A stretch of DNA of 64,000 nt from Nanobdellota archaeon (GTDB taxonomy: Archaea; Nanobdellota; Nanobdellia; Woesearchaeales; GW2011-AR4). The translations under genes were made by a program, and so were the position numbers. This document shows, in pieces, positions 19,525 through 40,698 of this stretch. Each line of letters opens with the position of its first letter. The first letter of the stretch is position 1. Where the stretch lies: contig JBBSWH010000006.1 in the NCBI GenBank assembly GCA_038046385.1, forward strand, positions 129,009 to 193,008, given 5' to 3'. Under the pieces are notes generated by a model, which was given only the letters and a program-made list of their open reading frames with translations, was not told the origin of the DNA and made no database searches.

Positions 19525-22500
19525 GTGGGTTGTATCTTGAAAAGAGGGATAATGAGCAATAACTATAGGGTTCTAGCTTTTGTAATCTTATTTATGATTG
19601 GGTTTGTGAGTTATGTTCCGGATGTTAAGGCAGCATGCTGGAATGGATGGGGATGCAGCTTGGCTAGAGCATGCTGTAACAGCGGTAGCTCATGTGGAGC
19701 ATTGTATCAATCCTGCTGCCAGAATAGTGCTTGTGGCTCGGGGCTTGTATGCATTTCAGGAAAATGCAGTACCCCCTCTGGATGTTTGACAGAACCAGCA
19801 GGGTGCTACAAAAAAGAAACAATTTGCACAGTAACCGAAGTATGCAAAGACAGCCAAGATGATAGTGTATGCGACCCTCTAGATTACTATGGAGACGGGG
19901 AATGTGTTTGCAATCCAATAACACCTGAAGAGTGCCCTGATTATGCAAAACAAAATACAAACACACTAACAACAACAGCCGCAAAAAGCGATTTTGCATA
20001 TTATCTTCCTTCTCCAAAATGCACGAAAATCGGTTCTTGCGCCTGTCCAACCGGAACAGACGCAGTAACTCCAGTATCAGATTTTACAACAACAGAAGCA
20101 GCATGCAAATGCATAACTGACGCAACTTGGACAGGCACAAGCTGCTGTGGATATGCTGGAGGGCCGGCGTGCACAGGACAACCATTATGTGGAGGAACAT
20201 CATACAATTCAGCAACACAAAAATGCTGCGGTGACGTTATAAAACCAATAGGAGAAACCTGCCCATCAGCCCCAACAAACCCTACAACTCCCCTAACTTT
20301 TCAACAAGGGGATTGCCCGACTTCAGGATATACTTGCGATCCATATGTAGACCTACCGGCAAATCCTGTAAAGGCCAAAATCGCTTATCTTGAAAAGACA
20401 AAGTCCGAATATATTGCTATGGACAGCACAACCTGGGATAAATGCGACAAAGTTTTTGAATCTAATAAAAATATCAGAAAAAATATCACAGCTGACAATA
20501 AAAATCATACCTTCTTATGCACAGGAAAAGGAGAAGGATCAATTGTCGAATGCCAAGGCGAAGGGGCATCAATCTCAACAGGAGACGGACAAAGAATCAA
20601 AATAGGAGAATCAGTAAAACGCGGCCTTCCCAACAATCCGATTCCGGGAGAATGCAAACCGGGCCCGGTTCTTTGTGACGGAACAGCAAACGCAAACTGT
20701 GCATGCCCTAAAGACAAGAAGATAGTTTCTCAGAAAGTTTGCAAGAAGACGAACACATTAAAAACATGCACGCCTGGAGCATGCACTACAGGAACGAGCG
20801 TAACAAGTTGCCCACCACCTGCTTCAGACCCACTAACAGGAAGGGTTGTAAGAAATCCTATAACCGGAAATTTTGTTGCTCCACCTCTAGACACTTGCGG
20901 CGATACTACTTGTAATGAACCGAGTGAAACATGCACAAACTGCCCATCAGATTGTGGAGAATGCCCGCCTCCGCCTGCTGACTGCGGAGCATTAGGACAA
21001 GATTGCTGCACTACCGGAACAGCATGCCCGGGACTTACATGCAATAGTGTAAGCGGAAAATGCGAAGCCGTGTCGGTTGGAGAATGCTGCACATGTTCAA
21101 TGGAAAGAAAAACAGACTGCACAACAGAAGACCAAAAAGAAACAGTATATTCCTGTGAAGCATGCACTGACGATGGCAGTCCTTGTTATAATTGCACAAA
21201 GCCAACAGAACCAATTACAGATACATCAACCTATTACTGCAACGCCGATACAAGATTTGTAAAAGACCTTGATTATTATATTCCAAATGTTGATAAGAAA
21301 CCGGTAAGGCCTTTTAATGCAGAGGATTACTGCTCAAACTCATCAAATTCAAAAGAGATGTGCAAGAAAACATGCGAAGCAGCAGGATTCTCTTGGACAG
21401 GAACAAAATGCTGCAGCGAAGATGATGATAATCTGACAGAAACAGCAGAAGGAATAACGACATTCTTTACCTGTTTAAATGACCCCACAAAGACTGAATG
21501 CTACAATGATAAAATCAGTGCTTTAACAGGCACAGAAGGCGGATGCTGGAACAGCACAATAGTACCCTCATTCGATTCAGTCAGCGAAAATCCACCCACA
21601 AAAAATTCTGTCATGAATTACAATGGAGAATTCTACGGATGCGCAATAAGAAATGATTCAAACCCAAAATTAAAGAAACCAACGCCCGGTTTTAGAAATT
21701 TCAACACAGAGAATGATATTTTAATCCAACAAAACCCTCTTTCTTTTGGGCCAATACTTGATAAATATATAATAAATAGAAGACTGATAAAAGACCGCGC
21801 GCATTGCAATCTTTTAGAAAAATCACCCCTTCCAAACGCAGAATACTACTACTGCGCTTACAATGAAACATGGATATACTCAACAACAAAGAAAGAAAAT
21901 CTTTCTTATGCACCCCCAGTACCATCGCTAATAACAGACCAAAAAAACGAAGCTGGATGCTGCGAGGAATTCAAGTGCTGGAATGGAAGAACATGTTCTA
22001 ACAACCAGAAGAATGATCCAAAAGGATTGCCATTAGCAACTACTAATTTCAGATGCATAGACGGAAATTGGGTAGCATCTTCTTTGAAAAGATCTCTTGA
22101 CGGAAGAACCGGATACTGCGGAAACGAAAGCCAGTGCCTACTTGACCCCGATGAAGAGGATATCAACAAGCAGTGCATAGACTCCGGCCAATATATAGAA
22201 GACAATTACTGCGAATCAGGAAACTGGTCTTCAAGGACAAAATTAGTTGCATTGAAGATGATGAAGATAAAAGAAACTATTGGCAGATCTTCAGACTTTA
22301 CACTGTTCTGCGATGATTCAAAAGATAACACTTTGAATTATCTTGCATATTCTGTGCAAACTGGGCAGGCTGCTGCTGCATTAGCAAAATTGAATCCAAA
22401 TAACTTTTGCGTGCTTAATGTAGGAACAAGAACTTTCGTTGGAGTATCCCTCAATAAAAGGTCAGAAGAACTTTCTGCTAATACCTTGCAGGTCTTAGGA

Positions 22501-23055
22501 GGAACGTCGTGCAGCAGCACAGCAAACGACAGGCTCTACAATAAATGCACATCCAGCAACAGCAAATTATGGTACAACAGAAACTTAAGCATAATGGTTT
22601 ACAGCAACACTGATATAACTCCAAGTTCCATTCAGGATGCTTCTGAAAGAAACCCAGCTACCCTTATTTTGCAGCTGAAACAGATAATCAACATCCCTTT
22701 TAATTCGGTTGTAAGGGGCCTCGGACAAGCTTTATCGGAAGAAGATACTGGTTCTGAAATCCCCCTAAAATTCGACAGGCTTTACATGGCAAAGCAAGGA
22801 ACAAAAGCAATCAACGCATTCCTTGAAGGGAGTTCACATCAGGCAGCAGTCATACAATACAATGGATTTACTACATCCAATATTTGCCAGCAGATTGACA
22901 AGTATGCGCAAGGAAGAACTATAGATGAAGACTCAGGAATATCCTGCTCCGGCACTGCAGGCAACTATTATGTTTATGCTTATGGCCAAATATTTACAAA
23001 CATAAAACCATCGATAATCTGGCCGGATTTAACGTCAAAATTAAGGTTAACATGA
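19525..23055 (+). CDS. Large secreted Cys-rich surface protein (1176 aa)
   Basis: Signal peptide ending VKA; very high Cys content, repeated W.GT.CC and CG(A)L.Q.CC motifs, CGDxxC...ETCxNCPxDC unit. Confidence 0.75.
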   Translation: MGCILKRGIMSNNYRVLAFVILFMIGFVSYVPDVKAACWNGWGCSLARACCNSGSSCGALYQSCCQNSACGSGLVCISGKCSTPSGCLTEPAGCYKKETICTVTEVCKDSQDDSVCDPLDYYGDGECVCNPITPEECPDYAKQNTNTLTTTAAKSDFAYYLPSPKCTKIGSCACPTGTDAVTPVSDFTTTEAACKCITDATWTGTSCCGYAGGPACTGQPLCGGTSYNSATQKCCGDVIKPIGETCPSAPTNPTTPLTFQQGDCPTSGYTCDPYVDLPANPVKAKIAYLEKTKSEYIAMDSTTWDKCDKVFESNKNIRKNITADNKNHTFLCTGKGEGSIVECQGEGASISTGDGQRIKIGESVKRGLPNNPIPGECKPGPVLCDGTANANCACPKDKKIVSQKVCKKTNTLKTCTPGACTTGTSVTSCPPPASDPLTGRVVRNPITGNFVAPPLDTCGDTTCNEPSETCTNCPSDCGECPPPPADCGALGQDCCTTGTACPGLTCNSVSGKCEAVSVGECCTCSMERKTDCTTEDQKETVYSCEACTDDGSPCYNCTKPTEPITDTSTYYCNADTRFVKDLDYYIPNVDKKPVRPFNAEDYCSNSSNSKEMCKKTCEAAGFSWTGTKCCSEDDDNLTETAEGITTFFTCLNDPTKTECYNDKISALTGTEGGCWNSTIVPSFDSVSENPPTKNSVMNYNGEFYGCAIRNDSNPKLKKPTPGFRNFNTENDILIQQNPLSFGPILDKYIINRRLIKDRAHCNLLEKSPLPNAEYYYCAYNETWIYSTTKKENLSYAPPVPSLITDQKNEAGCCEEFKCWNGRTCSNNQKNDPKGLPLATTNFRCIDGNWVASSLKRSLDGRTGYCGNESQCLLDPDEEDINKQCIDSGQYIEDNYCESGNWSSRTKLVALKMMKIKETIGRSSDFTLFCDDSKDNTLNYLAYSVQTGQAAAALAKLNPNNFCVLNVGTRTFVGVSLNKRSEELSANTLQVLGGTSCSSTANDRLYNKCTSSNSKLWYNRNLSIMVYSNTDITPSSIQDASERNPATLILQLKQIINIPFNSVVRGLGQALSEEDTGSEIPLKFDRLYMAKQGTKAINAFLEGSSHQAAVIQYNGFTTSNICQQIDKYAQGRTIDEDSGISCSGTAGNYYVYAYGQIFTNIKPSIIWPDLTSKLRLT

Positions 23056-24263
23056 AAAAAACAAAAATAAAAAATCATAGATTTTCCAGGAAATCCCAGA
23101 TAACAATGCTGATGATAATAGGGCTTGCAATATTCATAACAATAAGCCTCGTGCTTTACCTTTCAAAGTCTGCAATAAAAAAACAAACTTCTCAGTCAAT
23201 AAAAAAAACACAGGGAACTTCAACAGACACAAGGCCGATACAGGAGTTTGCAAGCTCATGCGCTGACAAACTGACAAAAGACGCAATCTCTCTTGTTGGG
23301 AAACAGGGAGGGTATATCTATTCAAGCCAGGGCGGAACATTGCTGGATTACGGAGACGGGCAGGAAGGAGTTAGATACATAACTTGGGATAACAAAAAAG
23401 TTTCATACGGAATACTTGCCCCATCATTCAGAATTGAAAAATATTCTGCAGAAGTTCCAGATTATCCTTGGATTAAATACCCATACATCGACGATACCCT
23501 TACAATTGAAACATCCAAGGGAATTTTTGGAAAAAGCAACTTGCCATCTCTTTTGAAACCAGGAATACAATCAATACAGGGGCAGATTGAATCGTATATT
23601 GACAAAAATATGGAAGCATGCACTGACGACTTTTCAATATTCGAGAGCCAAGGATATGATATAGAGATGAAGAACACAAAATCAGCTGTTACGATAGGCA
23701 ACAGCGATGTTTCTGCAAAAATAAACACAACAATTACAATTACAAATCTGCAGACGCAGGAGCATTCTGAGATAAATCATCTTTCCACAAATGTAAATGT
23801 AAGGTTACGAGAATTATATCTTCTTGCAGATTATGCAATAAAAAATGATGTAGGCGATATATCGTTTGATATTAAAGACGCAAAGGATGAAAAGGGAACA
23901 ATCGATATTGATGTTAAAAATGGCATTTTTTCCAAAGATGATATAATAATTCTAACGGACACAAAATCGTTCCTTTATGGAAAGCCGTACCAGTTCATTT
24001 TTGCAAGAAAGAACAGGGCGCCGGCGCTTTCTTACATAAGGGGGTCATCAAAAGAAATAGATTATATTAACACTAAGGAAGAATTAATTGACGCTGCGGA
24101 TTTACCTCTAAACGCAACAGACCCGGATGAAGATGATGTTGACATAAAAACATACCAATTATTTCCCTACACTACCACTAATACAGCTACTCCAATTAAG
24201 ATATATGCAACAGACGGAGAACTTGAAGACTTTCACGAAATAAGCGTTAAATCAACAGGATGA
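23052..24263 (+). CDS. Large type IV pilin-like protein (class III signal peptide)
   Basis: RKSQ-ITMLMIIGLAIFI leader; C-terminal NRAP...ATDPDED Ig/cadherin-like segment. Confidence 0.75.
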   Translation: MKKTKIKNHRFSRKSQITMLMIIGLAIFITISLVLYLSKSAIKKQTSQSIKKTQGTSTDTRPIQEFASSCADKLTKDAISLVGKQGGYIYSSQGGTLLDYGDGQEGVRYITWDNKKVSYGILAPSFRIEKYSAEVPDYPWIKYPYIDDTLTIETSKGIFGKSNLPSLLKPGIQSIQGQIESYIDKNMEACTDDFSIFESQGYDIEMKNTKSAVTIGNSDVSAKINTTITITNLQTQEHSEINHLSTNVNVRLRELYLLADYAIKNDVGDISFDIKDAKDEKGTIDIDVKNGIFSKDDIIILTDTKSFLYGKPYQFIFARKNRAPALSYIRGSSKEIDYINTKEELIDAADLPLNATDPDEDDVDIKTYQLFPYTTTNTATPIKIYATDGELEDFHEISVKSTG

Positions 24264-27200
24264 ACAAAAAAATATTTTTAATAATGATTGCAGTTTTTAT
24301 AATTGCATTTTCATTTAATGTGTATGCTGACGAAATAGGGTGCTGCTCAAACCCTGCAGCAGGATCATGGGCATGCTCATCAGACCTTGCAAACAGGGAT
24401 GCGCAGTGTTGCCCTCCACAGGCTGCAAATCCGTCATATTATAAGCCTCAAAATCCAGACGGGCCGGTTGATTACAATGCATGCAAAAATTCATTTTTTG
24501 CTGTAGGACAAAATTGCAGGAATGTTGAAGCATGCAATCAGGGATGCTGCTGTTCAGACACAGGAGGAACAGTAAAATCAAAAATACAATGCACTGGCTC
24601 CGGTGAAATTTTTGATGAAAGCGATCCAACATGCGCAAATTGCGCAGATCCACAATGCAATGACGGAATAGATAATGACAACAATGGATGCTCAGATTTC
24701 CAGGGCGGAGATTCCGGATGCACAGACTCAAGTGATACTTCAGAAGCAAGAGGAACATGCCTTGGGCAGTCTGGAGGATGCCTTGACTCATTATATAATC
24801 CAAAACTTTCAAGCTTGATAATCACTCAAGTCATCGGACAGAAAAAATTATTTTTGAGGTGGATTGATGAATGCGGTCAAAACGCAGTTTCATATGATAT
24901 ATCCAGATGCAAAGGACAGGACTGCACAAATTTGGTTTTTGTAACAACTTCTGCAACAAACTCCTTTGAAGATTCTTCAGCAGAGCTTGAATATGACACG
25001 ATGTACACTTACCAAGTTAAGGCGCATTACTCTCCGCAATCTTCAACACCGACTGTAAAAGGATACGGAACACTTGGAAATAAGGAATGCAGCAGCGGCG
25101 CCTCAAAAGTATGCGTCGGCAACATTGCATATTCATGCGTTGCGGGAAAGCTTGTAAAATTAAGCGAATGCGCATCAACGCAGGCATGCGTAATAAGTAA
25201 TGACGAGCCAAAATGCCTTAATAAAGACAATTGCAATTATAATGAAGCAAATCCTTTTGGATTGTTTTACACAAAACAAATTTGTGAAAACGAAAAATAC
25301 TGCTTTTATGACAAATCTGTAACCAGCGTTAATCGGTGCTTTTCTTGCAATCCTACAATGGCATGCTATGACTATAAATCAAAAGATTCCTGTGAAACTG
25401 ATAATTGCGGAGTAAACAGCTGCCAATGGAAAGAATCAATAAGCCAGATAGGGATAGGAGCGTGCGTAAAAACAACAGACTACAACTGCAAGTGGTGCAG
25501 CACGCAAGGAACAGTAGGAATGCAAAATATTTTAGCGTACAACCAGGTCTTTGACATCTGCACTGCAGAAAAAACATCTTTGCTTTCATTGACAAATTTC
25601 AAATGCTTTCTTAACGGAAACAAGGCAAGCGGATGCGACGAGACAAAATGCTCAGATTATGATGTTTCACAGTGCAGCGCACTCCCAATAACTCACAATT
25701 CCAAGAATGAAATAACTCGTTTTTCAACAGACCAGTGCGGCATAAAAGTATGTCAGAACATAAATAACAAATGCGTCAAGAATGCAGACGGAGATGCAAT
25801 TCCTGATTGCGCAAGCGCAACCAACTCAAGCTTCTGTGAAGGTGATTATTTTGCGCCAAACACAACAATAACAGCAACAACAACAATTTCAGCAAACACC
25901 CAGAAAAATATAATAGACACGCTGCTGATACAGATAAAGGATAAGTCAAGCTACAAAGGGGATTATTTCCTTAAGATGTCTTCTGATTACTCAACATTTG
26001 TATGCCTAGGATCATGCACAAGCGGGCATCCTTTTGCGGCATATACTAAAGGCAGAAAAATAGTAATTTCAAATCTTGGAGCATACGACGGAAGCAATGG
26101 CAGCAAAATGCTTACATTAACAGAAGGAAAAAATATAATAAATTATTACTCCCAGGATCCGTCAAAAAATATAGGAACAGTTCAGACGATTGAAATATTT
26201 GCGTATGACAACACCACTGGTCCAAAAATATTTTATTTTAATGTGACAGGAAGCTCATCTGCGAATGATATTTTCTATACAAATCAAAAAAGGCCTAACA
26301 TTAGAGTTATATTCTTTGAAAAAGCAACAATAACCAGCGCAAGATTAATTTCAAAAGACAGGAAAAGGATAATCTCATTAGATATTCCGAGCGGAGAAGA
26401 CACAATATTCAATTTAAACGCCCAAAGCGACGCGTCTGACGGAGAATACACTTTTGAACTGCAGGCAAAAAATTCTAAAAATATTTTCATGCAGACATTC
26501 ACTGCAGCAGTTGTTGTAGACACAATAAAGCCGAAAATAACAGTGACTCCTGCAGAAGGAACTTTGATAACAGAAGACAAGCCGGTTCAGGTAACCTTGT
26601 CGTTCAATGAGATTGTAATCCTTGATTTGGTAACAATAAATTCTCAAAATATAAAAGATAAGCTAACAACAACAAACAACAAAGATTTTACCGGAGCAGT
26701 TTCTGTAAGCGACGGCAACAAGGCGCTGCAGGTTAATGCAAGAGATTTTTCAGGCAACGCAATAACAAATACAACAAGATTCGTTATGGACGCAAAGCCA
26801 ATGGACATAACGATTGCAAAGCCGAAATACGGAGTTGCTCCAGACTATTCTTTTGAATTTGCAGTCACAACAGACAACAATGCAAACTGCAGGTTTGCAA
26901 TCGATGATGACGATGAATACGATTTTATGCAAGCATTCGGCATTACAACTGGCATTTTACACTCAAAGCAAGGTGTTTCAATAAGAAACGGAGATAACAG
27001 CACCCATAAATTTTACGTCAAATGCAAAGACGCAAAAAATACAATTTTCTCAAAAGATTTTGATATAAGCGTGGACAAGACAAAGCCCATAATAAAAAAC
27101 TCGTTCGCATTCCCAGCAGTCGTGGCAGATGATCCGTATATTTCTTCTTTGAATGCGCAGACAGATGAACCAACTATATGCAAATTCAGCACAACAAGCT

Positions 27201-30205: not shown

Positions 30206-30210
30206 ATCTT

Positions 30211-30711
30211 ATGAAAAAAGCGCAGCTTTACGGACATATTTTTATTTACATTCTGACAATAACGGTTACATCATTCATACTGTTATACGGCTACAATGCG
30301 ATAAAAAACTTTCAGGACAAGACAGACCAGGCTTCGTGCATCAAGTTCAGGAATGACCTGAAATCAGCTGTTTATACGATAATGAGCGACTACGGGACTG
30401 TCAAGAGAAAAGATATTGAACTTTGCTCAAATTACAACAAAGTTTGCTTTGTGGAAACATACAGACAGATAAATAGGGATAATCCAACTTCAAACTCAAA
30501 TCCAATTGATCCAATAATAAAAGACAGCATAATATCAAAAACAGAAAAGAATGTTTTTCTTGTTGCAGATGTAGCAAAAGACGGCTTTTACATAGGCAAT
30601 GTAACTGTAGATGCAAACTTTGATGTTTACTGCGTTAATGCACAGAACGGCAAGATAAGCTTAAAATTAGAAGGAATGGGAGACAGTGTTTATGTTTCAA
30701 AATGGGAATGA
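30211..30711 (+). CDS. Type IV pilin-like protein
   Basis: MKKAQ-LYGHIFIYILTI class III leader. Confidence 0.8.
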   Translation: MKKAQLYGHIFIYILTITVTSFILLYGYNAIKNFQDKTDQASCIKFRNDLKSAVYTIMSDYGTVKRKDIELCSNYNKVCFVETYRQINRDNPTSNSNPIDPIIKDSIISKTEKNVFLVADVAKDGFYIGNVTVDANFDVYCVNAQNGKISLKLEGMGDSVYVSKWE

Positions 30712-30717
30712 TTTTTC

Positions 30718-31755: not shown

Positions 31756-31756
31756 A

Positions 31757-32233
31757 ATGAAAAAAAAGAAATCCCAAATACAGATTGGAGAAACCATATC
31801 GGTTATATTCGTTTTTTTTATATTGCTTTTGATAGGGTTCATGTTTTATGCAAAAGTTCTCAAGGGAAATGCCGCAATAGAGTCAGACGAGCTGGCGCAG
31901 TTAAGGTCTGTTGAGATTGCGCAGAGGGTTATGTTTCTTCCAGAGATGCAGTGCAGCACCGATGTGACTGACAGCAAGAACTGCATTGACAAACTGAAGG
32001 TAGAATCTGCAAAAAATGTAATGAACTTAAATGCAGTTGAATATTTTGACATATTGGGTTTTGCAAAAATAAAGATTCTTCAGGTGTATCCTTCATACGA
32101 GGAAACCGAAATCTATTCAAAGGACCTTTCGGATTTCAAGAACAAGTTCTCAACAAATGTGCCTGTTTCTATTTATGATCCTATAAAAAAAGAATATAAT
32201 TTTGGATTGGTGTCAATTGAAACGTACTCGTAA
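31757..32233 (+). CDS. Type IV pilin-like protein
   Basis: KKSQ-IQIGETISVIFVFFILL class III leader. Confidence 0.8.
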   Translation: MKKKKSQIQIGETISVIFVFFILLLIGFMFYAKVLKGNAAIESDELAQLRSVEIAQRVMFLPEMQCSTDVTDSKNCIDKLKVESAKNVMNLNAVEYFDILGFAKIKILQVYPSYEETEIYSKDLSDFKNKFSTNVPVSIYDPIKKEYNFGLVSIETYS

Positions 32234-32693
32234 AGGGCAGATGGAGATATTGGGATTGGCGATTGTTGTAGTTTTATTGCTTCTTGCTGCAACTTTTGTC
32301 ATAAGATTTCTGCTCACGAAGAAATCACCGGAATACAGGAAAAGCTTCATAAGTGCTGAACTTGCATCAGGAATGATAAACACTATTTTGAAGACAACAG
32401 CTACTTCATGCTCAAGGGCAACAATGAAGGACTTATTGGAGGACTGTGCGACTTCACAGTCACTTGTGTGCGAAGATGGGCAAGGAGCTTGTGATTATTT
32501 TGATGAGGCTGCCAACGGAATACTAATTCAGACTCTTAACAAATGGAACTACAAATATCAGTTTACAGCAGTAATTGGGCAGAATAGCCCTTTTGTCAGC
32601 ATCGGGAGCAAGTGCCTTTCGGAGAAAAAATCAGAAACTTATGTTGTGCCAAGCTCAATACCAATACAGGTTAAGCTTGATATTTGCGGATAG
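32217..32693 (+). CDS. Type IV pilin-like protein (probable TTG start at 32217)
   Basis: RKGQ-MEILGLAIVVVLLL class III leader. Confidence 0.8.
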   Translation: MKRTRKGQMEILGLAIVVVLLLLAATFVIRFLLTKKSPEYRKSFISAELASGMINTILKTTATSCSRATMKDLLEDCATSQSLVCEDGQGACDYFDEAANGILIQTLNKWNYKYQFTAVIGQNSPFVSIGSKCLSEKKSETYVVPSSIPIQVKLDICG

Positions 32694-32742
32694 TAGTTGT
32701 TAATGACCCATTTAGTTTATCCTTTGAGTTATTGAATGATAA

Positions 32743-32802
32743 TTCCGTCCTTCGGACAAACGTTACAGCTCGCTGGCACCATAACCAGCTCGCCATATAT
32801 TG
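32743..32802. repeat. 60-bp dispersed hairpin repeat, copy 2
   Basis: 58/60 identical to 18754-18813. Confidence 0.9.
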
Positions 32803-32924
32803 AACTAATCACAATCTTTATATTAAGGAAATCAAAGATTTTCTGATATAAATCTTCGAAATAGAACATTTCGATATATTTATATATAACCAATCCGATA
32901 AAACATTATCAAAGAGGTGTCAAT

Positions 32925-33185
32925 ATGAAAAAAGCGCAGGGAATTTCAATCAACGTCATTATTATAGCAGCAATCGCACTTGCTGTTTTAGTAGTTCTAT
33001 TTGCCATATTTACAGGCAGAATAGGCGGATTTTCAAAGGGGGTGTCTGAAACAGACACATGCGCGCAGAAATGCTCTGCTTTAAACATGCAGAAGCTTGG
33101 GGATATAGGCCCAGGAGAATGCAGCGGAACCCCAATAGGCGGAAAGTACTCTGACACGCCAACCAACGGATGCTGCTGCGGTTAG
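32925..33185 (+). CDS. Small pilin (major pilin candidate)
   Basis: MKKAQG-ISINVIIIAAIALAVLVVL; Cys-rich C-terminus; own TTTATATA box about 45 nt upstream and GAGGTG RBS. Confidence 0.85.
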   Translation: MKKAQGISINVIIIAAIALAVLVVLFAIFTGRIGGFSKGVSETDTCAQKCSALNMQKLGDIGPGECSGTPIGGKYSDTPTNGCCCG

Positions 33186-33227
33186 CAATACAAAATATTT
33201 ATATAGTGAGTTCTTTAGTATTTTTGT

Positions 33228-33488
33228 ATGATTAGCAGGAAAGCTCAAGGCATGCCGCTTAATGTAATAATAATAGCAGCATTGGGGCTGATTGTTCTTG
33301 TTATTCTTGCAGTAATGTTTTCTGGAGAGAGCAAGAAGTTTTCAGCAGGAATAAGCAGCTGTGCAGCAAAACAAGGAACTTGCCAACAAAAAGCATGCGA
33401 TGACGAACAGGTAACAATTAATGGAGTATGCCCTGAAAAAGGACAATCGACAGATTTGAAATACTGCTGCGCAAAAGTTCTTGGTTAA
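33228..33488 (+). CDS. Small pilin (paralog of preceding gene)
   Basis: RKAQG-MPLNVIIIAALGLIVLVIL; Cys-rich; own TTTATATA box upstream. Confidence 0.85.
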   Translation: MISRKAQGMPLNVIIIAALGLIVLVILAVMFSGESKKFSAGISSCAAKQGTCQQKACDDEQVTINGVCPEKGQSTDLKYCCAKVLG

Positions 33489-33489
33489 A

Positions 33490-33603
33490 ATGTTAAAGAA
33501 ATCTCAGATAGACAGTGTTATGATATGGATTATAGGAATCGCTCTTGGATTACTGTTTTTTTATGGAATATGGAAGGCACTGACAAATGGACTTAGCCCG
33601 TGA
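33490..33603 (+). CDS. 37-aa micro-pilin (not in ORF track)
   Basis: MLKKSQ-IDSVMIWIIGIALGLLFFYGIWKALTNGLSP*; starts 2 nt after the previous stop and overlaps the next gene. Confidence 0.7.
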   Translation: MLKKSQIDSVMIWIIGIALGLLFFYGIWKALTNGLSP

Positions 33604-34705
33604 CAAGAAAGGAATGGAACTTTCAACTATAATTGAAATAATTCTGGTAGTTGTGGCAGCGGGCCTTATAATCGGTGTTTTTACGCTTGCGTCAAACAAA
33701 GCAGATGAAAAAACATCAGAGATATTATGCAGAGGATTCAATTCTGTAAGGTTTTTAACCAAAATAGATAAAGGCCCTCTTTCGTTTAATGTAGCTCCGA
33801 ATGCGTGCAAGACAATTGATGTCAAAGACTTGCCGACAAAGGCTTATGCGACTTCTACCGATGTAAGCGCATTGAAGCAAAGCATGGCATACCAAATAAG
33901 GGATATGGCGACAAAGTGCTGGTGGATGTGGCTTGAAGGAAGGCAGACTAATATGTTCAGCACATCGACATTATCTTTTGAAAACAAGTGCTTTGTATGC
34001 TATACTTTTTCAATTGACAAAGACACGGGATTCATTCCAGTTGAAACTTTCTATAAATCCCTAAATGATCCTTACTTTGCATCAGACACTTCTGACAAAT
34101 GTGCTTCTGGCGGCGGAGGGAAGTGCATGGAAAAATGCGAAGGGGATTACCCAAAAGACACTTCATCTTCAAAATGCCAGCCTGACCAGAAATGCTGCGT
34201 CGCAGACAATGAATGCGAAAGCAAAGGGGGAAAATGCGCAGAAACATACCCTGACGGCGGTGGATATGTTGAATTCAACAAATGGCCTTGCAAGAGCGGA
34301 AAAACATGCTATGTGCCATCAGGAGTTTCAGGAACATATTTTGATTATATACAGGGCACAAAAGGAGAAGGCGGATTGGGTTTTATTGTACAGCCGGATG
34401 ATATGAACACTTTCGACAGCAATAATTATTATGCAATAACTTTTGTAAGTCCAGGAAACCATGCAAATTTAGATACATTTGGGTATGGGACTGTCACGGC
34501 AGTTTTAGGGGCAGGAACATTAGCAGCAACATGGTTTTCTCCAATAGGAAAAGCAAATATTTTGGCAGGAGGTTCAACATTAACTGCTGTGGAATATAAA
34601 ATGACGCAAAAATCAGGCGATGCAAATGCCAACTATCTTTATATATCAAAGTATGATGATGTGAAAGGAAAGTGCCTTGCGGAGACAGGGGCAGGACAGA
34701 AATGA
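33587..34705 (+). CDS. Type IV pilin-like protein, Cys-rich
   Basis: DKKG-MELSTIIEIILVVVAAG leader; repeated C...GG.C units; second hydrophobic segment near the C-terminus. Confidence 0.8.
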   Translation: MDLARDKKGMELSTIIEIILVVVAAGLIIGVFTLASNKADEKTSEILCRGFNSVRFLTKIDKGPLSFNVAPNACKTIDVKDLPTKAYATSTDVSALKQSMAYQIRDMATKCWWMWLEGRQTNMFSTSTLSFENKCFVCYTFSIDKDTGFIPVETFYKSLNDPYFASDTSDKCASGGGGKCMEKCEGDYPKDTSSSKCQPDQKCCVADNECESKGGKCAETYPDGGGYVEFNKWPCKSGKTCYVPSGVSGTYFDYIQGTKGEGGLGFIVQPDDMNTFDSNNYYAITFVSPGNHANLDTFGYGTVTAVLGAGTLAATWFSPIGKANILAGGSTLTAVEYKMTQKSGDANANYLYISKYDDVKGKCLAETGAGQK

Positions 34706-34842
34706 AATCAAAGAAAGCAGAACTTATAGAAGGAAAATTGATTACAATAATTTTGATACTTGTATTCCTTGCAATCGCAATAGGAATCTCAATCATCTTC
34801 AAGGATAAAATGTCATCAATAATATCATCAATATTCGGGTGA
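34702..34842 (+). CDS. 46-aa micro-pilin (not in ORF track)
   Basis: MKSKKA-ELIEGKLITIILILVFLAIAIGISIIFKDKMSSIISSIFG*; ATGA overlap with the upstream stop. Confidence 0.7.
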   Translation: MKSKKAELIEGKLITIILILVFLAIAIGISIIFKDKMSSIISSIFG

Positions 34843-34846
34843 ACAA

Positions 34847-35635
34847 ATGCCAGAAACTCTTATAGGAAAAATTGTATTATGGGGGTCTTTGCTTCTGTTC
34901 GTTGGCATATTCGCTTATGTTTTTTATTCAGATGAGGGGTTGCTAAAGACTATTGCAAACCTTGCATTGAAGACAGAAAGATTTCTTCCGTTTGGCACAG
35001 ACAAGGACGTTGGAACTACGACTGCAATTAACACAGCAGTTTTGGCATCCCATCTAAAATTTTCTGAAGAAGTTGATAAGTACGCTGCAAACTATGGGTG
35101 TCTGATTGATGCAGACTTTTCAGCTTTTGACGGATATACATTAGAGATATCAAATTCAGCAGGAAAAATAACATCAACAATATTAAAACCAGTTAATGAA
35201 AAAGGATTAATAGACAACAGCGGATTCTTGAGATTAAGGCAGAAAACTGTTGAGAGCAACACTAAGATATGCATGGTAAATCCAGACGTATTTGTTAAAT
35301 GTTATAATGAAAATCAAGGATGCACTTCTTCAAGCCTTTTTGTATCTGCTGACAAGCTTAAAGTCACAAAAGACAAAGTTTTATTCGGAGACCAATCTCA
35401 TAATTACGCAAATGGAATACTTTTCAAGCCGGCACAGGATGAAGTTTGCTTTATACCGACACATTCAGGAGCATTCACATGGTTTGGATGCGATGCGGAT
35501 GCAGCAACCATGGATGATGATTGTTTGAATTTTATAAAATCAAAAGTTCCAAAATGCTCGACAGGAAATGGAAATATTCCTGCGCCGAATGTAAACGCAA
35601 GAGCAGCAGCAGATGCAACAGCAACATCGAGATAA
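34847..35635 (+). CDS. Membrane-anchored Cys-containing protein in pilin locus
   Basis: N-terminal TM helix without a basic class III leader. Confidence 0.65.
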   Translation: MPETLIGKIVLWGSLLLFVGIFAYVFYSDEGLLKTIANLALKTERFLPFGTDKDVGTTTAINTAVLASHLKFSEEVDKYAANYGCLIDADFSAFDGYTLEISNSAGKITSTILKPVNEKGLIDNSGFLRLRQKTVESNTKICMVNPDVFVKCYNENQGCTSSSLFVSADKLKVTKDKVLFGDQSHNYANGILFKPAQDEVCFIPTHSGAFTWFGCDADAATMDDDCLNFIKSKVPKCSTGNGNIPAPNVNARAAADATATSR

Positions 35636-35636
35636 A

Positions 35637-35924
35637 ATGAAATCAAAAAAAGGAGCAGAAGGAATAATCTGGATTGTGATAGTTTTTGTTCTTCTTTTAT
35701 TGTTTATGTTTATTTACACAGGGATATGGACAAAGCTATTTGGGAAGGGCGCAAAAGGAATTGGCGATCAGATTGATGCAACATCGAATGATCATGACAG
35801 CGACGGAATTGCCGATTTTGCAGACAGATGCCCGTGCGGCGGAAGTGACGGTCAGCCGGAATACAACGGATGCACGAAGACTAGTGATGATAAAGAAAAA
35901 AGCGACAGAACATGCTTAAAATGA
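35637..35924 (+). CDS. Pilin-like protein with TSP3-type Ca-binding repeat
   Basis: MKSKKG-AEGIIWIVIVFVLL; DHDSDGIADFADRCP. Confidence 0.8.
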   Translation: MKSKKGAEGIIWIVIVFVLLLLFMFIYTGIWTKLFGKGAKGIGDQIDATSNDHDSDGIADFADRCPCGGSDGQPEYNGCTKTSDDKEKSDRTCLK

Positions 35925-36598
35925 ATTCTAAAAAAGCATTTACTATGGCAGAGGCTTTGATGAGAATAACCATAGCTGCAGTTTTGCTGTTTATTGTCTT
36001 TAAGTTTGGAAAGGGAGTTGCAGATTCCTTATCTGGAGGAAACGACGCATTGAATTCTTTTGAAAGCCTTGCAAATGAGATGAATTCGCATGAGAATTGG
36101 ATTGAAAAGCAAACACTGCTTTCTTTAGATTCGGATACTGCAGTATTCGGCTTTTCCAAAACCGGAAACTTTGAGTGTTACGGATGCGGAAACCTGGATA
36201 AAGGCAAGCTAAGGAGCTTTTTTACAAGGCCACAGAATGAAGAGTGCAAGGACAGCGCATGTGTATGCTTATGCTCATCCCCTTCTGTGCCTCCTGACTC
36301 GCCTCTCTCAGAGTCATTGGAAATAAAATGCAAAAAGATGTCATGCAGGAAAACAAATTACGAAATATCCAGCGGATATGAAGTTAAAAGGTTCTTCAAG
36401 TCAATTTCAGCTAGTGATACAGCTTCATGGAAAAATGGATTTGTATATGCAAGGGATATAGAGGACAACACAGTTCCTATAACGGGCATGCCTAGGAACA
36501 AAGAAAGAATAACATCTCTTTTCCTTGAAAGAAAAACAGCTAACGGGATAAATTATATAGGAGTATGCCCTGTTAAGCCATGCATAGAGCAAAACTAA
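35921..36598 (+). CDS. Type IV pilin-like protein
   Basis: MNSKKA-FTMAEALMRITIAAVLL (bacterial-like F1/E5 pattern). Confidence 0.8.
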   Translation: MNSKKAFTMAEALMRITIAAVLLFIVFKFGKGVADSLSGGNDALNSFESLANEMNSHENWIEKQTLLSLDSDTAVFGFSKTGNFECYGCGNLDKGKLRSFFTRPQNEECKDSACVCLCSSPSVPPDSPLSESLEIKCKKMSCRKTNYEISSGYEVKRFFKSISASDTASWKNGFVYARDIEDNTVPITGMPRNKERITSLFLERKTANGINYIGVCPVKPCIEQN

Positions 36599-36789
36599 TA
36601 TAAACCCTTAATTCGAGTTCTATACAATGTCGAAAATATATTCTCAGCATATAAATGGCAGACGTAAGCTGAATATAATTGCAAAAGACAATATATTTTC
36701 GAGCACGATCAAAAACCACAGACAATTTAATAAACAGATACGAGCATTTCAAAATATATACTATTTAACCACAAAAGGTGGTTTTTGAC

Positions 36790-37251
36790 ATGCAAAAAAG
36801 AGGGCAGCTTGTAAACAAGGCACTTATAGTTCTGATAGTATCTGCAATAGTCGTTATTGCATTCATATCTGCAGGAAAGTCTTTTGGATCTGGAGATGCA
36901 TATTACAAGCTGGCTGTCGCAAAAGATTTGGCACTTTCGGTTGATTTGATAAGCGGGATGCCGGGCGATGTTGTATTTACATATCCAAATGATGTTTCCG
37001 GATATGATATTGAAGTCAAGAAGAATTTAATCTTAGTTTATGGCAATAAGCTTGGCAAGCTCGACCCTGTTAAGGCAACTTACAGTTTCTCAAGTGTTGG
37101 CCAGATTGAAGATGTTTACATAAAGAATGCAAAATATGTTACTATAGAAAAAACAGGCAATAAGATTATACTGAAAGAATCAACACTTTTTGCAGGATTT
37201 GGAGGATCCGGAGCATTTTCTGGCAAAGGTTCAAGCGGAGTTATTCAATGA
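36790..37251 (+). CDS. Type IV pilin-like protein
   Basis: MQKRG-QLVNKALIVLIVSAIVV. Confidence 0.75.
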   Translation: MQKRGQLVNKALIVLIVSAIVVIAFISAGKSFGSGDAYYKLAVAKDLALSVDLISGMPGDVVFTYPNDVSGYDIEVKKNLILVYGNKLGKLDPVKATYSFSSVGQIEDVYIKNAKYVTIEKTGNKIILKESTLFAGFGGSGAFSGKGSSGVIQ

Positions 37252-37739
37252 AAACAAATAAAATATTTTCATCGAAAAGAGCAACAGAGCTGTGGGCAGC
37301 AGACACATTTTTGTGGTGGATAGTGTTCATAATTGCTGTCGGCTTTGCAGCAATCGGATTTTCTATTTTCACATATCAAATTGGATCCCAGCAGGCGCAG
37401 ATAAGGGAGAATTTAGAGTCTTATTACCTCATGCAGCGCTTTACAAAAGTTTCTGAATGCTTTGCATACAACCCAGAAGGAATTATAATCCCAAATACAA
37501 TAGACTTGGCTAAATTTACAGATTCAAAACTTCAAACCTGCTACGATTCTGAAAGCGCAAAGATGCCGGCTTTCAAGCTGACGCTTGTTACAGACAAGAC
37601 CGCTTTAATAATGACAAAAAACTGGAATGATAAAAGAGAGGCAGAACTAACATTAGCTTCGCAACCGGTTTTGGTCTATTCAGGCGCAAAAACATCAAAA
37701 GGAGAGTTAAAAATTGAAATACAAAATCTTCAGAAATAA
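37248..37739 (+). CDS. Type IV pilin-like protein
   Basis: SKRA-TELWAADTFLWWIVFIIAVG. Confidence 0.7.
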   Translation: MKTNKIFSSKRATELWAADTFLWWIVFIIAVGFAAIGFSIFTYQIGSQQAQIRENLESYYLMQRFTKVSECFAYNPEGIIIPNTIDLAKFTDSKLQTCYDSESAKMPAFKLTLVTDKTALIMTKNWNDKREAELTLASQPVLVYSGAKTSKGELKIEIQNLQK

Positions 37740-38232
37740 ACGAGCAATAGGCATAGACGATGCAATTCCCGTAATAGTAATCATATTCGTGGTTGCAATA
37801 ATGTTCATGCTTTTCAAATTTAATGAGCATTCAAAAGAAAAAGATATAGCGAATAATATACAAAATCAGAAAGACATAATCGATGGGCATGAAGTTCTTG
37901 TTGGGTATTTAACAAAAACAGATTCAAGCGGAAAAAATAATGCAGATTTGCTGATGGAAGCATATCTTAACAAAGATGATTCTGTTAAAAGCAAAGTTAA
38001 GGACTATTTCTCCGCAAAACTCTTGCATCTTACCGGATGGGAAGTGCAAATTTCAGATTCTCAAAATAAAGTTTTTTTCTCTGTAAATGGGGGATCTTAT
38101 GACAGTTCACAGCTTAAGAATGCAGTTACAGAGTCAATAATACCGGCAAGAAACGGGAATTATCTGAGAATAACGCTGAATTACGGAAGAGGAAAGGCGC
38201 AGAGCATGTATGCGAACGCAAAGAACGGTTAA
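37714..38232 (+). CDS. Type IV pilin-like protein
   Basis: NKRA-IGIDDAIPVIVIIFVV. Confidence 0.7.
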   Translation: MKYKIFRNKRAIGIDDAIPVIVIIFVVAIMFMLFKFNEHSKEKDIANNIQNQKDIIDGHEVLVGYLTKTDSSGKNNADLLMEAYLNKDDSVKSKVKDYFSAKLLHLTGWEVQISDSQNKVFFSVNGGSYDSSQLKNAVTESIIPARNGNYLRITLNYGRGKAQSMYANAKNG

Positions 38233-38233
38233 A

Positions 38234-39379
38234 ATGTTCAACAACAAAAAAGGAATAGGGTTGGAGTGGTATTTCCTTATCATAGCTTTATTCTTGGGGA
38301 TAATCTGGTTTTACATAGCGATGCAGAATGCAAGAACAATCTCAAATTATGTTGGAGAATATCAGTTTTCAATTCTGAAAACAGCGAACGAAGCCGAAAA
38401 TATTATTTTTTACATAGGTCAGTCTGCAAAATATTCTCTGGAGCAGGCGATTTACGACTTGGCCAGCAATGGGGGAATTTCAGAAGGCGAGCCTGGAGCT
38501 TCAATGAAATCAGATGATTTCTACAACGCAAACCCCTCTGACAGGTGCGGCAAATTTAACGGCTACAATGTCTGGATGCAGTTTCAGAGAAATGAAAACG
38601 GAGTGCAGGTTAATGACTGCTTTGATGCAGATGCAGTCGATTCAGATTTAGAAGTATATTTCGACAAAAACCTCAACAGCCATTTGGGAAAATACACTTT
38701 TGATATTCCAAGAGACTATCAATACAAGTTCAGCGGAGCAACAGAAGTTACAGGAATTGCATCATACCCTCTTATTTTTGACATTTCAAATATAAAAACA
38801 GCAACACAGCAAAAGCCAACACTGACAACCGGAGCAAATACTCCTGTGACAACAAAGCCGGGAATACCCGTTTCACAGATTTATTTTGGAAAATTAAATG
38901 ATTTCACAAATAAGAGATCAAGCAGCATAGCAGTTGAAAAGATAATTCTTCACCATACGGGGGACAGTGCAGCGTCGCAGACGTTTGCAACGCTGAAACA
39001 GAGGAAGTTATCGGTGCATTACATAACAGACAGAGACGGCACAATCTACTATGTTGTTGATGAAAGCTTAACGGCGTGGCACGCCATTGGCCAGAATGCA
39101 GATTCAATCGGAATAGAGATTGTGAACAATGCAAAAGCAGTCACAAAATACACCGATGCACAATATGAATCAATAAACAAATTGATTAAGGATATATCCA
39201 GCAGATGGCCTAACATAAAGATTGACAATAATCACATATTTGCGCATTATCAAACTGACCCAAAAAAGGAGAAATGGGATCCTTCTCCAAATTTTGACTG
39301 GTCAAAGATTGAATTAACGGATCACCAGACGCTTGCTGACTTGGGAAGAAATGCTCCAGCAGGGATGGGGTACACTTAA
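38234..39379 (+). CDS. Pilin-like protein fused to N-acetylmuramoyl-L-alanine amidase (Amidase_2, AmpD/AmiD-like)
   Basis: MFNNKKG-IGLEWYFLIIALFLG leader; T/P-rich linker; IILHHT, SVHYI, AWHAIG, SIGIEIVN, YTDAQY, FAH, KWDPSPNFDW. Confidence 0.88.
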   Translation: MFNNKKGIGLEWYFLIIALFLGIIWFYIAMQNARTISNYVGEYQFSILKTANEAENIIFYIGQSAKYSLEQAIYDLASNGGISEGEPGASMKSDDFYNANPSDRCGKFNGYNVWMQFQRNENGVQVNDCFDADAVDSDLEVYFDKNLNSHLGKYTFDIPRDYQYKFSGATEVTGIASYPLIFDISNIKTATQQKPTLTTGANTPVTTKPGIPVSQIYFGKLNDFTNKRSSSIAVEKIILHHTGDSAASQTFATLKQRKLSVHYITDRDGTIYYVVDESLTAWHAIGQNADSIGIEIVNNAKAVTKYTDAQYESINKLIKDISSRWPNIKIDNNHIFAHYQTDPKKEKWDPSPNFDWSKIELTDHQTLADLGRNAPAGMGYT

Positions 39380-39381
39380 AA

Positions 39382-40698
39382 ATGGAAAATAATCATTTCA
39401 TAGAACTAATGATAATCCCGCTGCTTATTATAGGGGCATTGCTGTATACTGAAAATTTTGACAATGTAATCACCGGATTTGCCACACAAGCTCCTGTGCA
39501 GAATACTAATCCAATTCTTGGAACATATTCAGCAAAGCCGAGCTTTAAGGCGTCATTCGATTATGATGTTAAAGCGAAAATTTCTTCGATAAAGGGCACA
39601 ATGAATCTCATAGCAGACACGTGCAAAGATGACCCTGATATAGAAAATTGCATGAACTCAAGCTTTTCAGGCCTTAAATGGATTTGCAGCAATGACAATG
39701 CAGAAGATGTTTTGCACGATTTTACAGGCAAGATGAAAGACTGCTTAGCTCTTGAAGAAAATGTTATCTGCAAATTCGGATTTGATGATAGAAACCTTGA
39801 TGGGAGAACATTCAACATCAAGCTTTTAAAAGAAGACGGAATTGTAAAAGCGCAATTGCTTGCGAATGGAAAATCAATTGCAGCAGAATATCTTGGGATC
39901 GATAAAATCCAATATACTGATTTTGCTTCAAAGGAAAAGGGAACAGATGCAGACTCTGCCGACATAATCGTTTCTTATTCTGATGGAAAGCCGAATGTAG
40001 AGAAGATGTTTGCGATGGCATCCAATTCAAGAACAGAATTAAGCAAAAAAATAATCCTGTACAAGTCAAACGGAATAAAGTTCATAGACGAAACAGAAGA
40101 AAACTCATTTGGAGCCCCAATCAAGACAGTATTTTTGCCAAGATACAAAGGCATGAAATTATGCGTCGATGCAGGAAAACAAGTTTATGCTTATGATGCA
40201 TCAGACAATCAAGTTAAGAGGAGAGACTTGGTTTACAGGTTTGCAATCACGTTCACAACACCGCCTCCAGGGCCTTTGACCGGTGTGAGAAGCCTTTCCA
40301 TGCCTGACGGAACACAGATTGTAATATGGAGCAAAATGGAAGATGCTGCTTCGTACTCTATTTATTATTCAAAGTTAGATTTTATTGATTCAAAATTATC
40401 TTCAATAAGAAGCGACAAGGATGTTATTCATGTTTCTGTTGATGCCAACCAGCCTTATGAAGAATTTGATAATTTCCCAACAACCAAGTTTGAGAAAGGC
40501 AAGCTGTACTATCACACCTTACTTAACAAGTTCACTTATGTGATTGATGTTGAGGACAACACACCCTATTACGCTGCTGTTGCAGCTGCAAACGAGCAAG
40601 GTTCAGAGATATTCAACGACAATACCGTGCCAAACTCTTTTGTTTATGAAAAAGGGAAGAACTATGCTGAATTCACTTCCGGCACAGATTCACAATAG
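39382..40698 (+). CDS. Membrane-anchored extracellular protein with C-terminal FN3-like domain
   Basis: N-terminal TM helix + ITGFAT; PPPGP...IVIWS...YSIYYS...YYAAVAAANEQGSE. Confidence 0.65.
   Translation: MENNHFIELMIIPLLIIGALLYTENFDNVITGFATQAPVQNTNPILGTYSAKPSFKASFDYDVKAKISSIKGTMNLIADTCKDDPDIENCMNSSFSGLKWICSNDNAEDVLHDFTGKMKDCLALEENVICKFGFDDRNLDGRTFNIKLLKEDGIVKAQLLANGKSIAAEYLGIDKIQYTDFASKEKGTDADSADIIVSYSDGKPNVEKMFAMASNSRTELSKKIILYKSNGIKFIDETEENSFGAPIKTVFLPRYKGMKLCVDAGKQVYAYDASDNQVKRRDLVYRFAITFTTPPPGPLTGVRSLSMPDGTQIVIWSKMEDAASYSIYYSKLDFIDSKLSSIRSDKDVIHVSVDANQPYEEFDNFPTTKFEKGKLYYHTLLNKFTYVIDVEDNTPYYAAVAAANEQGSEIFNDNTVPNSFVYEKGKNYAEFTSGTDSQ

Follow-up and report, generated by a model that had tools for sequence, protein, structure and literature searches.

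Archaeal type IV pili (T4P) of the Epd/clade 1 kind are described for Methanococcus, Methanothermobacter and Thermococcus (Makarova, Koonin and Albers 2016, PMC4858521), and the available part of that work puts unlinked pilin and motor loci on record in archaea. In bacteria, the Tad-like Kil pilus of Myxococcus xanthus has interchangeable minor-pilin 'Tip' complexes, according to the available portion of Herrou et al. 2025 (PMC12075869). Streptococcus sanguinis carries modular pilins, PilB with a von Willebrand factor A (vWA) module and PilC with a lectin module (Raynaud et al. 2021, PMC8179133); the accessible text of that paper covers lectin, vWA and peptidase modules for bacterial modular pilins, and the word 'hydrolase' occurs in it 0 times. 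Murein-cutting domains occur in archaea that make no murein and are prominent in Nanoarchaeota. These enzymes, including large SLT-domain proteins of Woesearchaeota and Pacearchaeota, have been taken to point to antagonism towards, or attachment to, bacteria (PMC12352652, PMC8204110, PMC9723730). As far as the available text of these three papers goes, murein hydrolases were noticed in Woesearchaeota-type genomes without a delivery device; 'pilin' and 'class III' are absent from the accessible part of PMC12352652, as are 'pili' and 'pilin' from that of PMC9723730. A census of type IV filament (T4F) systems, which used its own models, lists few such systems in DPANN in the portion available (PMC13705601). 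Here we describe a locus, in a 64,000-nucleotide (nt) window of DNA from a Nanobdellota archaeon (contig JBBSWH010000006.1, positions 129,009 to 193,008), that couples an exchangeable wall-cutting enzyme with some sixteen pilin-like proteins and two giant ones, and that is present in most genomes of the phylum sampled. We lean towards the view that it encodes a type IV filament-like surface apparatus presenting adhesins and a cell-wall hydrolase to bacteria.

The window lies on contig C6 of the source genome, G000, which measures 1.28 Mb in 19 contigs and is 85% complete. Coordinates without a contig prefix are window positions, those of the form G000:Cn refer to contigs of the source genome, and G001 and similar handles denote relatives. 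The locus (19525–40698) is a single gene block of 21 open reading frames (ORFs), all on the + strand. Adjoining genes overlap by 4–34 nt or are spaced by ≤6 nt, except at three larger gaps: 231 nt 5′ of g08, 42 nt 5′ of g09 and 179 nt 5′ of g15. An initial annotation of this DNA had reported 20 co-oriented, tightly packed genes. Orientation and coupling are as it described, but the count is 21, the small ORFs g10 and g11b making the difference. It had also placed two giant Cys-rich proteins at the start of the locus; both g01 and g03 are indeed giant and Cys-rich, although they are not adjacent, g02 intervening. Its sixteen pilin-like genes of 37 to about 400 amino acids (aa) are borne out as 16 genes of 37–403 aa, with one exchange. 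We dropped g01 from the count because its orthologues have plain Sec leaders, and added g10, which has KKS↓Q followed by a hydrophobic helix and which, at 40 aa (37 aa counted from the first Met), falls below the gene caller's size limit. The genes of the block are as follows.

g01, 19525..23055, + strand: secreted giant Cys-rich protein, 1176 aa, 91 Cys
g02, 23052..24263, + strand: pilin-like protein between the two giants, 403 aa, RKS↓Q leader
g03, 24260..30205, + strand: giant Cys-rich surface protein, 1981 aa, 118 Cys
g04–g07, 30211..32693, + strand: pilin-like core quartet of 166, 345, 158 and 163 aa, translationally coupled
g08 and g09, 32925..33488, + strand: pair of pilin-like proteins, 86 aa each, with KKA↓QG as leader and six Cys in a small head
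g10, g11, g11b, g12, g13 and g14, 33481..36598, + strand: five pilin-like proteins (g10, 40 aa; g11, 372 aa; g11b, 56 aa; g13, 103 aa; g14, 228 aa) plus g12
g10, 33481–33603, + strand: small ORF within this set
g11b, 34672–34842, + strand: small ORF within this set
g12, within this set: N-anchored protein of 262 aa without the K/R-G/A/S motif
g15–g17, 36778..38232, + strand: small pilin-like proteins of 157, 163 and 172 aa, opening the last sub-operon
g18, 38210..39379, + strand: modular pilin-like protein with a KKG↓I leader and an Amidase_2 head at residues 242–360
g19, 39382..40698, + strand: N-anchored 438-aa protein, last gene of the operon

One N-terminal hydrophobic segment was found in 19/19 locus ORFs examined. 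Proteins were classified as class III-like when [KR][GAS] occurred in the first 45 residues, a 14-residue hydrophobic window followed within 8 residues, and the protein had no more than one membrane-like segment. Against a genome background of 1464 ORFs from a crude gene call, a relaxed form of this classifier accepted 65 ORFs in all; 16 lie among the 21 locus calls (hypergeometric P = 5.7e-19), an enrichment of ∼17-fold. A stricter version accepted 42/1464, of which 13 belong to the locus. The anchors of g12 and g19 are plain N-terminal ones that lack the motif, and g01 and g03 have Sec-type leaders. The motif is also conserved. For g02, g04, g05, g06 and g07, the small residue after K/R is kept in position in every orthologue listed, across families of the order and at overall identities of 25–55%, and Gln frequently comes next; for g02, 6/6 orthologues retain the [KR][GAS]↓Q site. 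One would not expect an anchor that merely follows the positive-inside rule to hold a small residue after K/R at a fixed place. Gln occupies +1 in 7/16 of the locus pilin-like proteins, and Gln at +1 is the substrate type of EppA. Judged by motif, the locus proteins thus appear to carry the class III signal of the T4F superfamily. Scans of curated families with Pfam (E ≤ 0.1; E ≤ 0.01 for g19) and NCBIfam (E ≤ 1 or E ≤ 0.01) listed none of Pilin_N, Class_IIIsignal, N_methyl, TadE, Flp or the NCBIfam archaeal pilin and flagellin N-terminal models for locus proteins. No Pfam match of g10–g14 at E ≤ 0.1 reaches its cut-off, and the remaining pilin-like proteins, together with 10 further locus proteins of relatives, gave almost nothing in NCBIfam and Pfam apart from Laminin_G_3 (in G039) and a sub-threshold Amidase_3. 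As a separate observation, Asp or Glu occurs at +1 to +6 of the predicted cleavage site in 11/16 pilin-like proteins, which recalls Glu5 of bacterial pilins; none is present at these positions in g02, g04, g15 or the candidate major subunits g08 and g09.

The last pilin-like gene, g18, links this set to murein. The initial annotation had spoken of an amidase-pilin near the end of the locus, and g18 does match Amidase_2 (PF01510, the N-acetylmuramoyl-L-alanine amidase/PGRP/T7 lysozyme fold), at 95.3 bits against a cut-off of 26. When its amidase is aligned to AmpDh2 and AmpD, the His (LHHT), His (AHY) and Asp (WDP) columns are identical; these we take to be the zinc ligands. In the predicted structure (45 sequences; predicted local distance difference test score (pLDDT) 84), helices at 16–43 and 50–86 are followed by a small alpha/beta domain to about residue 185. 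The leader and carrier occupy residues 1–195, a low-confidence linker residues 196–208, and the amidase has pLDDT > 90. By this model, g18 has the plan of a modular type IV pilin, with a pilin-like module, a linker and a recognised C-terminal domain.

The head of g18 varies among relatives. Homologues in public metagenomes share approximately the first 200 residues of g18, including the NKKG↓IGLEWY leader, and end in Amidase_2, VanY/Peptidase_M15, Peptidase_M15_3 or glucosaminidase domains. Pfam applied to 20 in-locus g18 orthologues gave 10 VanY/M15, 1 M15_3, 2 SLT and 3 M23 heads, 1 protein with fn3 only and 3 with no match; BLAST against reference heads went beyond these assignments to identify a VanY head in G005 and an M15_3 head in G001. 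Amidase_2 occupies the g18 position in the source genome, G020, G009 and G033. Altogether, six head families sit on g18-type carriers (Amidase_2, VanY/M15, M15_3, M23, SLT and glucosaminidase), and the last pilin-like protein bears a murein-hydrolase head in 22/25 genomes examined. For the carrier module, 63 proteins entered a maximum-likelihood tree; the other 81 of 144 candidates lack the carrier and were excluded. Head type changes at least 16 times on this tree. The mean for shuffled heads was 29.1, 0/200 shuffles were as low as the observed value, and no tree could show fewer than 6 changes. A VanY-headed protein is the sister of the amidase form found in the window (Shimodaira–Hasegawa-like approximate likelihood-ratio support, 97). 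Repeated exchange of heads on a single carrier follows from the tree. In the genome, which is 85% complete, Transpeptidase gave no match and Mur_ligase_M a single one. Because a murein transpeptidase is missing from these matches and relatives swap the head among six families, we take the target to be foreign, presumably bacterial, murein. A second Amidase_2 domain, 56% identical to the g18 head, ends a 1245-aa ORF at G000:C6:91239–96382, ∼33–38 kb before the window, and a 387-aa pilin-like gene with a KKAQG leader lies just upstream of that ORF on the same strand.

The block is widely conserved. Its gene order recurs between Rpp30 and RPA in G001, G039, G031 and G040, and partly in G015, G028 and G034, so the block is syntenic across the order; the initial annotation had proposed checking synteny across Woesearchaeota and Pacearchaeota. 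The recurring order is giant, pilin-like, giant, g04–g07, small pilins, further pilin-like genes, large modular pilin and g19. In the G001, G039, G031 and G040 loci, 14 to 18 of 17 to 22 ORFs are class III-like. A match to g05 was found in 38/41 relatives, the three without one being 83–91% complete. Among phylum genomes sampled at ≥80% completeness, a g05 profile matched 260/301, a tally that takes in other orders of the class as well as the unpublished genomes G276 and G277. Orthologues of the g10–g14 set and of g15–g17 are found in G001, and g15 also has orthologues in G031 and G040. The second half of the locus evolves fastest, as judged against G001. Upstream, the flank is housekeeping in nature (Cdc6, both PolD subunits, MCM, TBP and the RNase P subunit Rpp30); downstream lie RPA, a methyltransferase and RadA. 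A T8 run is present 3′ of g19. Rfam and tRNA scans across 18–42 kb found no RNA genes. Depositors label homologues of the window proteins as Candidatus Woesearchaeota or Nanoarchaeota. The sequencing runs listed for the locus DNA number 15, all of DNA and from 5 studies, and where an organism is named it is groundwater metagenome.

Within the block, the g04–g07 quartet is a conserved core: orthologues in the same order occur in G001, G015, G031, G039 and G040, and partly in G028 and G034. The predicted structure of g05 (58-sequence alignment; pLDDT 93, predicted template modelling score 0.85) comprises a 56-residue helix (3–58), a beta domain (63–234) and a helical bundle (235–338). In both the g05 and the g18 model, a long helix at the N terminus leads into a beta domain; for these two proteins, the models did not give the outcome that the initial annotation had named as a refutation, predicted structures lacking the pilin alpha1 architecture. 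For both proteins, this fold evidence is one of predicted layout, not a match to a solved pilin. We also predicted a complex of two consecutive pilins, as had been suggested. With membrane helices removed, g05 (30–345) and g06 (32–158) were predicted to bind, scoring 0.79 in 3/3 runs, versus 0.00 for the best of 3 controls. Contact agreement between runs was ≥92%, and partner pLDDT was ≥78. In calibration, the mark was reached by 58/80 solved complexes and 2/110 mismatched pairs, a guide that is only rough here since we supplied our own alignments. The prediction supports, and does not prove, that core pilin-like proteins form a complex via their globular parts. Two further observations concern the quartet. 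In G040, a gene for a 566-aa polytopic membrane protein (L027, G040:C1 6430–8130) is inserted between the g04 and g05 orthologues, breaking the quartet. In the source genome, a 325-aa paralogue of g04 (G000:C15:5366–6343; 27% identity, E = 4e-7) has a DKKS↓Q leader and lies 2 kb from the sole A24 peptidase gene.

The two 86-aa proteins, g08 and g09, look like candidate major subunits. Their alignment has an invariant Q5 and invariant Cys columns. Compared with the same-genus relative G001, g08 is the best-conserved gene of the locus, at 67% identity versus 26–56% for other locus genes. The 231-nt gap before g08 (32694–32924) contains a short GTCC-TTCG-GGAC hairpin and a 36-codon ORF (32736–32846); a TTTATATATA element lies ∼40 nt before the g08 start, accompanied by a GAGGTG site. 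This gap gave no Rfam match, and its features fit a separate, strong expression signal. In a PDB profile search with g08/g09, the best match was 8rey_M, an archaeal 'flagellin-like protein' (E = 0.14, not significant), followed by eukaryotic membrane helices.

Matches to T2SSE, T2SSF and Peptidase_A24 all fall off contig C6, in agreement with the earlier statement that the window has no ATPase, TadC-like or prepilin peptidase gene. These components, which the initial annotation had proposed seeking elsewhere in the genome, are found on contigs C8, C4 and C15, so the machinery is not missing. Strong T2SSE (PilB/FlaI-type) ATPase genes lie at G000:C8:10495–11943 and G000:C4:67952–69595, each followed by two half-size T2SSF (TadC-like) genes. 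The single match for an A24 prepilin peptidase, at G000:C15:2374–3252, scores 56.8 bits with Peptidase_A24 (cut-off 26.5) and has ∼6–7 hydrophobic segments by a crude scan. The genome thus encodes, by sequence family, the A24 peptidase, the PilB/FlaI-family ATPase and the PilC/TadC platform by which T4F systems are recognised. The two motor loci (G000:C4:66009–70768 and G000:C8:9010–14919) are paralogous, with ATPases 56% identical. The C8 locus is flanked by its own pilin-like genes, with Q-A-L-E-F-L type N-termini, and the C4 locus has no pilins nearby. G040, the smallest relative (0.6 Mb), has one strong ATPase, beside PilA-type pilins and 31–34% identical to the C4 and C8 ATPases. We considered C4 as the dedicated motor of the locus and dropped the idea: the C4 and C8 ATPases are paralogues and that of G040 is no closer to one than to the other. 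On C5, two ORFs of 767 aa and 613 aa have weaker T2SSE matches, but these were not treated as pilus motors, as no platform gene adjoins them. In the closed genome G039, the nearest T2SSE match is ∼190 kb from the locus.

The giant proteins differ in how they are held. g01 has no Pfam or NCBIfam match and no C-terminal anchor; its C-terminal 400 aa are conserved in G015, G028, G031 and G039, and it is probably an adhesin or recognition protein. g03 has a Sec leader, Ig-like domains, Cys-rich repeats and TSP3 Ca-binding repeats, with Pfam matches only to TSP3_bac (33.5 bits), Big_13 (32.1 bits) and Y_Y_Y. Toward its C terminus, a membrane helix near residues 1795–1819 is followed by a basic, Lys/Gln-rich cytoplasmic tail. 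Orthologues of g03 were found in 7 genomes. Since g03 is membrane-anchored, it is not a simple pilus-borne adhesin, and it is by inference that we use the word adhesin for either giant. Ig-like stretches of g03 are shared with a 6275-aa giant ORF at G000:C16:3873–22700. The pilin-like g02, which matches only Woesearchaeota hypothetical-protein clusters in the ESM Atlas, has a 722-aa pilin-like paralogue at G000:C11:97015–99183. For g19, the earlier label 'FN3-like' finds no confirmation: no Pfam match was found at E ≤ 0.01, and the Atlas gave only weak Ig/fn3 leads (score ≤ 0.87, template modelling score ≤ 0.33). The locus of G039 ends in a Sec-type 278-aa concanavalin-like lectin (L020, G039:C1 15238–16074; Laminin_G_3, 82.8 bits), which sits between the hydrolase pilin and RPA, where the source genome has g19.

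We suggest the following way of working. About sixteen proteins would enter the membrane with class III-type leaders, which the single A24 peptidase would cut after [KR][GAS]. One PilB/FlaI-type ATPase with its split-TadC module, encoded on another contig, would assemble the subunits into a polymer, in which the small, best-conserved g08 and g09 may form the shaft and the conserved g04–g07 quartet a priming or tip complex. Recognition and adhesion would fall to the secreted g01, the membrane-anchored g03 and g02. On contact, g18, which ends the last sub-operon, would present its amidase head to the bacterial cell wall, and foreign murein could be cut for attachment to a bacterial partner or prey, to open it or to feed on it. 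The initial annotation envisaged a tip/minor-pilin assembly, but the locus is probably more than a tip or minor-pilin set, as g08 and g09 look like major subunits. Its idea of attack is genuinely backed by hydrolase heads in 22/25 genomes and the repeated head changes; the identity of the target as a bacterium is our inference.

Several points weigh against a filament-like apparatus. No locus pilin-like protein reaches the cut-off of any Pfam or NCBIfam pilin model. T2SSE is absent from the locus in 5/5 relatives checked, neither of the paralogous C4 and C8 motors stands out as its own, and the single strong ATPase of G040 sits with PilA-type pilins. All structural support is prediction. A Foldseek search of the PDB with the g05 model gave 0 matches at E ≤ 0.001, and a wide structural search (VIA), which barely sampled the N-terminal and beta parts of g05, returned generic helical bundles only (residues 250–345, Z ≤ 9.5); these searches are no evidence for or against a pilin fold. 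At 85% genome completeness, missing genes are no proof of absence. The anchor that ties g03 to the membrane of the cell itself suits a cell-surface complex no less than a pilus. This last point leads to the chief competitor of a long pilus, namely that type IV machinery builds the class III proteins into a short stalk or display complex, a pseudopilus or 'bindosome'-like array close to the membrane, which keeps giants and hydrolase at the surface where an episymbiont touches its partner. In Sulfolobus, class III-leader sugar-binding proteins are assembled into a surface bindosome by a PilB/PilC-type pair, a precedent that speaks for such an array, as do the membrane anchor and cytoplasmic tail of g03, the N-anchored g12 and g19 without a cleavage motif, and a total of sixteen different subunits, far beyond what a simple fibre needs. 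Yet in their size, their conservation and their separate expression signals, g08 and g09 are what one would expect of shaft subunits, and we regard the short array as a serious but rather unlikely explanation.

A simpler view is that these are ordinary N-terminally anchored membrane proteins, their K/R stretch reflecting the positive-inside rule, with no cleavage and no type IV machinery. The silence of the pilin family models, the lack of a motor in the locus and the lack of a structural match to solved pilins would all be expected under it. But the motif is ∼17-fold enriched in the locus, and its small residue is kept in place across all listed orthologues, often with Gln next; g12 and g19 show what a plain anchor looks like within the same operon, and the g05 and g18 models have a long helix plus beta-domain layout. 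We therefore consider plain anchoring highly improbable. Scarcely less improbable is that the hydrolase scavenges free murein debris or remodels the cell's own wall, instead of acting on a living bacterium upon contact. Groundwater holds cell-wall debris, the DNA was found only in groundwater metagenome runs, and an enzyme fused to an anchor would yield its digestion products close to the cell. Against this, the lack of a Transpeptidase and the single Mur_ligase_M argue against a murein wall of its own, though the genome is 85% complete; frequent swaps among enzymes that cut different bonds would be expected of target-specific weaponry; and the hydrolase shares an operon with adhesin-like giants. 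On this evidence, an apparatus that presents adhesins and a hydrolase to bacteria remains the reading we favour.

Woesearchaeota rank among the most widespread of uncultured archaea, and the locus bears on their hosts and way of life. It gives their long-suspected interaction with bacteria a concrete, testable apparatus. It predicts that leaders are cleaved at [KR][GAS], that g05 and g06 form a complex, that g08 forms a shaft and that the g18 head is active on particular sacculi. Head type may also serve as a sequence marker for guessing host wall chemistry. More tentatively, and with some doubt, we propose that Woesearchaeales and related Nanoarchaeia mostly share an ancestral, motor-unlinked type IV 'harpoon', with a multi-pilin tip, giant Cys-rich recognition proteins and a pilin whose murein-hydrolase head is exchanged to suit the wall of its bacterial partner. 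In that case, much of an archaeal class would live on or prey on bacteria rather than other archaea, and what type of wall the host has would be predictable from the g18 head.

How does this locus compare with described systems? In overall plan, it appears closest to the archaeal Epd/clade 1 T4P. As far as the available part of PMC4858521 goes, the two have in common an ATPase with two TadC components and small major pilins often encoded apart from the motor, as well as a pilin locus that includes at least five minor pilins and two large proteins resembling adhesins. Epd/clade 1 major pilins are ∼70 aa, and g08 and g09, at 86 aa before cleavage, are of this order. Unlike Epd/clade 1, this locus has ∼16 pilin-like genes versus ∼5, its motor is unlinked in all 5 relatives checked, and it includes a murein-hydrolase pilin. 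Furthermore, the large adhesin-like proteins of Epd/clade 1 loci carry DUF2341, of which no match was found in the giants g01 and g03, and no Epd pilin family was detected. Epd/clade 1 systems also have a dedicated peptidase, EppA, with 9 transmembrane segments; the crude count of ∼6–7 for the A24 peptidase here does not decide between EppA and PibD.

Bacterial type II secretion systems (T2SS) and T4P have minor-pilin priming and tip complexes, GspH-I-J-K in one case and FimU-PilVWX with PilY1 in another. The locus resembles these complexes in having several co-transcribed small pilins and a larger one with an extra helical domain (g05), in the predicted binding via globular domains and in the association of a large non-pilin adhesin. 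It differs from them in that no sequence or structural match was found, subunit numbers are not the same, and archaea have no outer membrane.

For the Kil pilus, Seef et al. 2021 (PMC8460266) is reportedly a further source. The initial annotation had likened the locus to Tad/Kil contact-killing systems, which is apt as a way of working, with tip complexes in their own clusters, but not as family membership (PMC12075869, available portion). In that same portion, Kil shares with this locus minor-pilin complexes in their own gene clusters with predicted heteromeric assembly, disulfide-rich variable distal domains without a PDB match, and a proposed contact-dependent action on other bacteria. Kil, however, belongs to the bacterial Tad/Flp systems, has envelope parts of the secretin type and is linked to a type III secretion system-like complex, and its tips are, in the text available, heterotrimers without a recognised hydrolase domain (PMC12075869). 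Of the Kil/Tad hallmarks, the locus has no ATPase and no TadE or Flp family match, and secretins are not expected in an archaeon. In way of working, the locus nevertheless seems closest to the Kil pilus tips.

g18 itself appears closest to the bacterial modular pilins. In the accessible text of PMC8179133, these likewise consist of a pilin-like module, a linker and a functional domain, with different modules on the same carrier; g18 differs in being archaeal, in lacking the N-methylation motif family (IPR012902) and in carrying a murein-cutting module. Published archaeal murein hydrolases are Sec/Tat-secreted or unassigned in the available parts of PMC12352652, PMC8204110 and PMC9723730, whereas in this conserved 21-kb operon a pilin-like carrier bears the enzyme as an exchangeable head. 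In the full-text literature, whose supplementary files may hold such loci, we found no archaeal pilin operon with a murein-hydrolase pilin described; g18 would be the first archaeal enzyme-bearing modular pilin in the literature searched. The locus thus belongs to a known kind, T4F systems with modular pilins, of which it is a new variant, and the feature is conserved.

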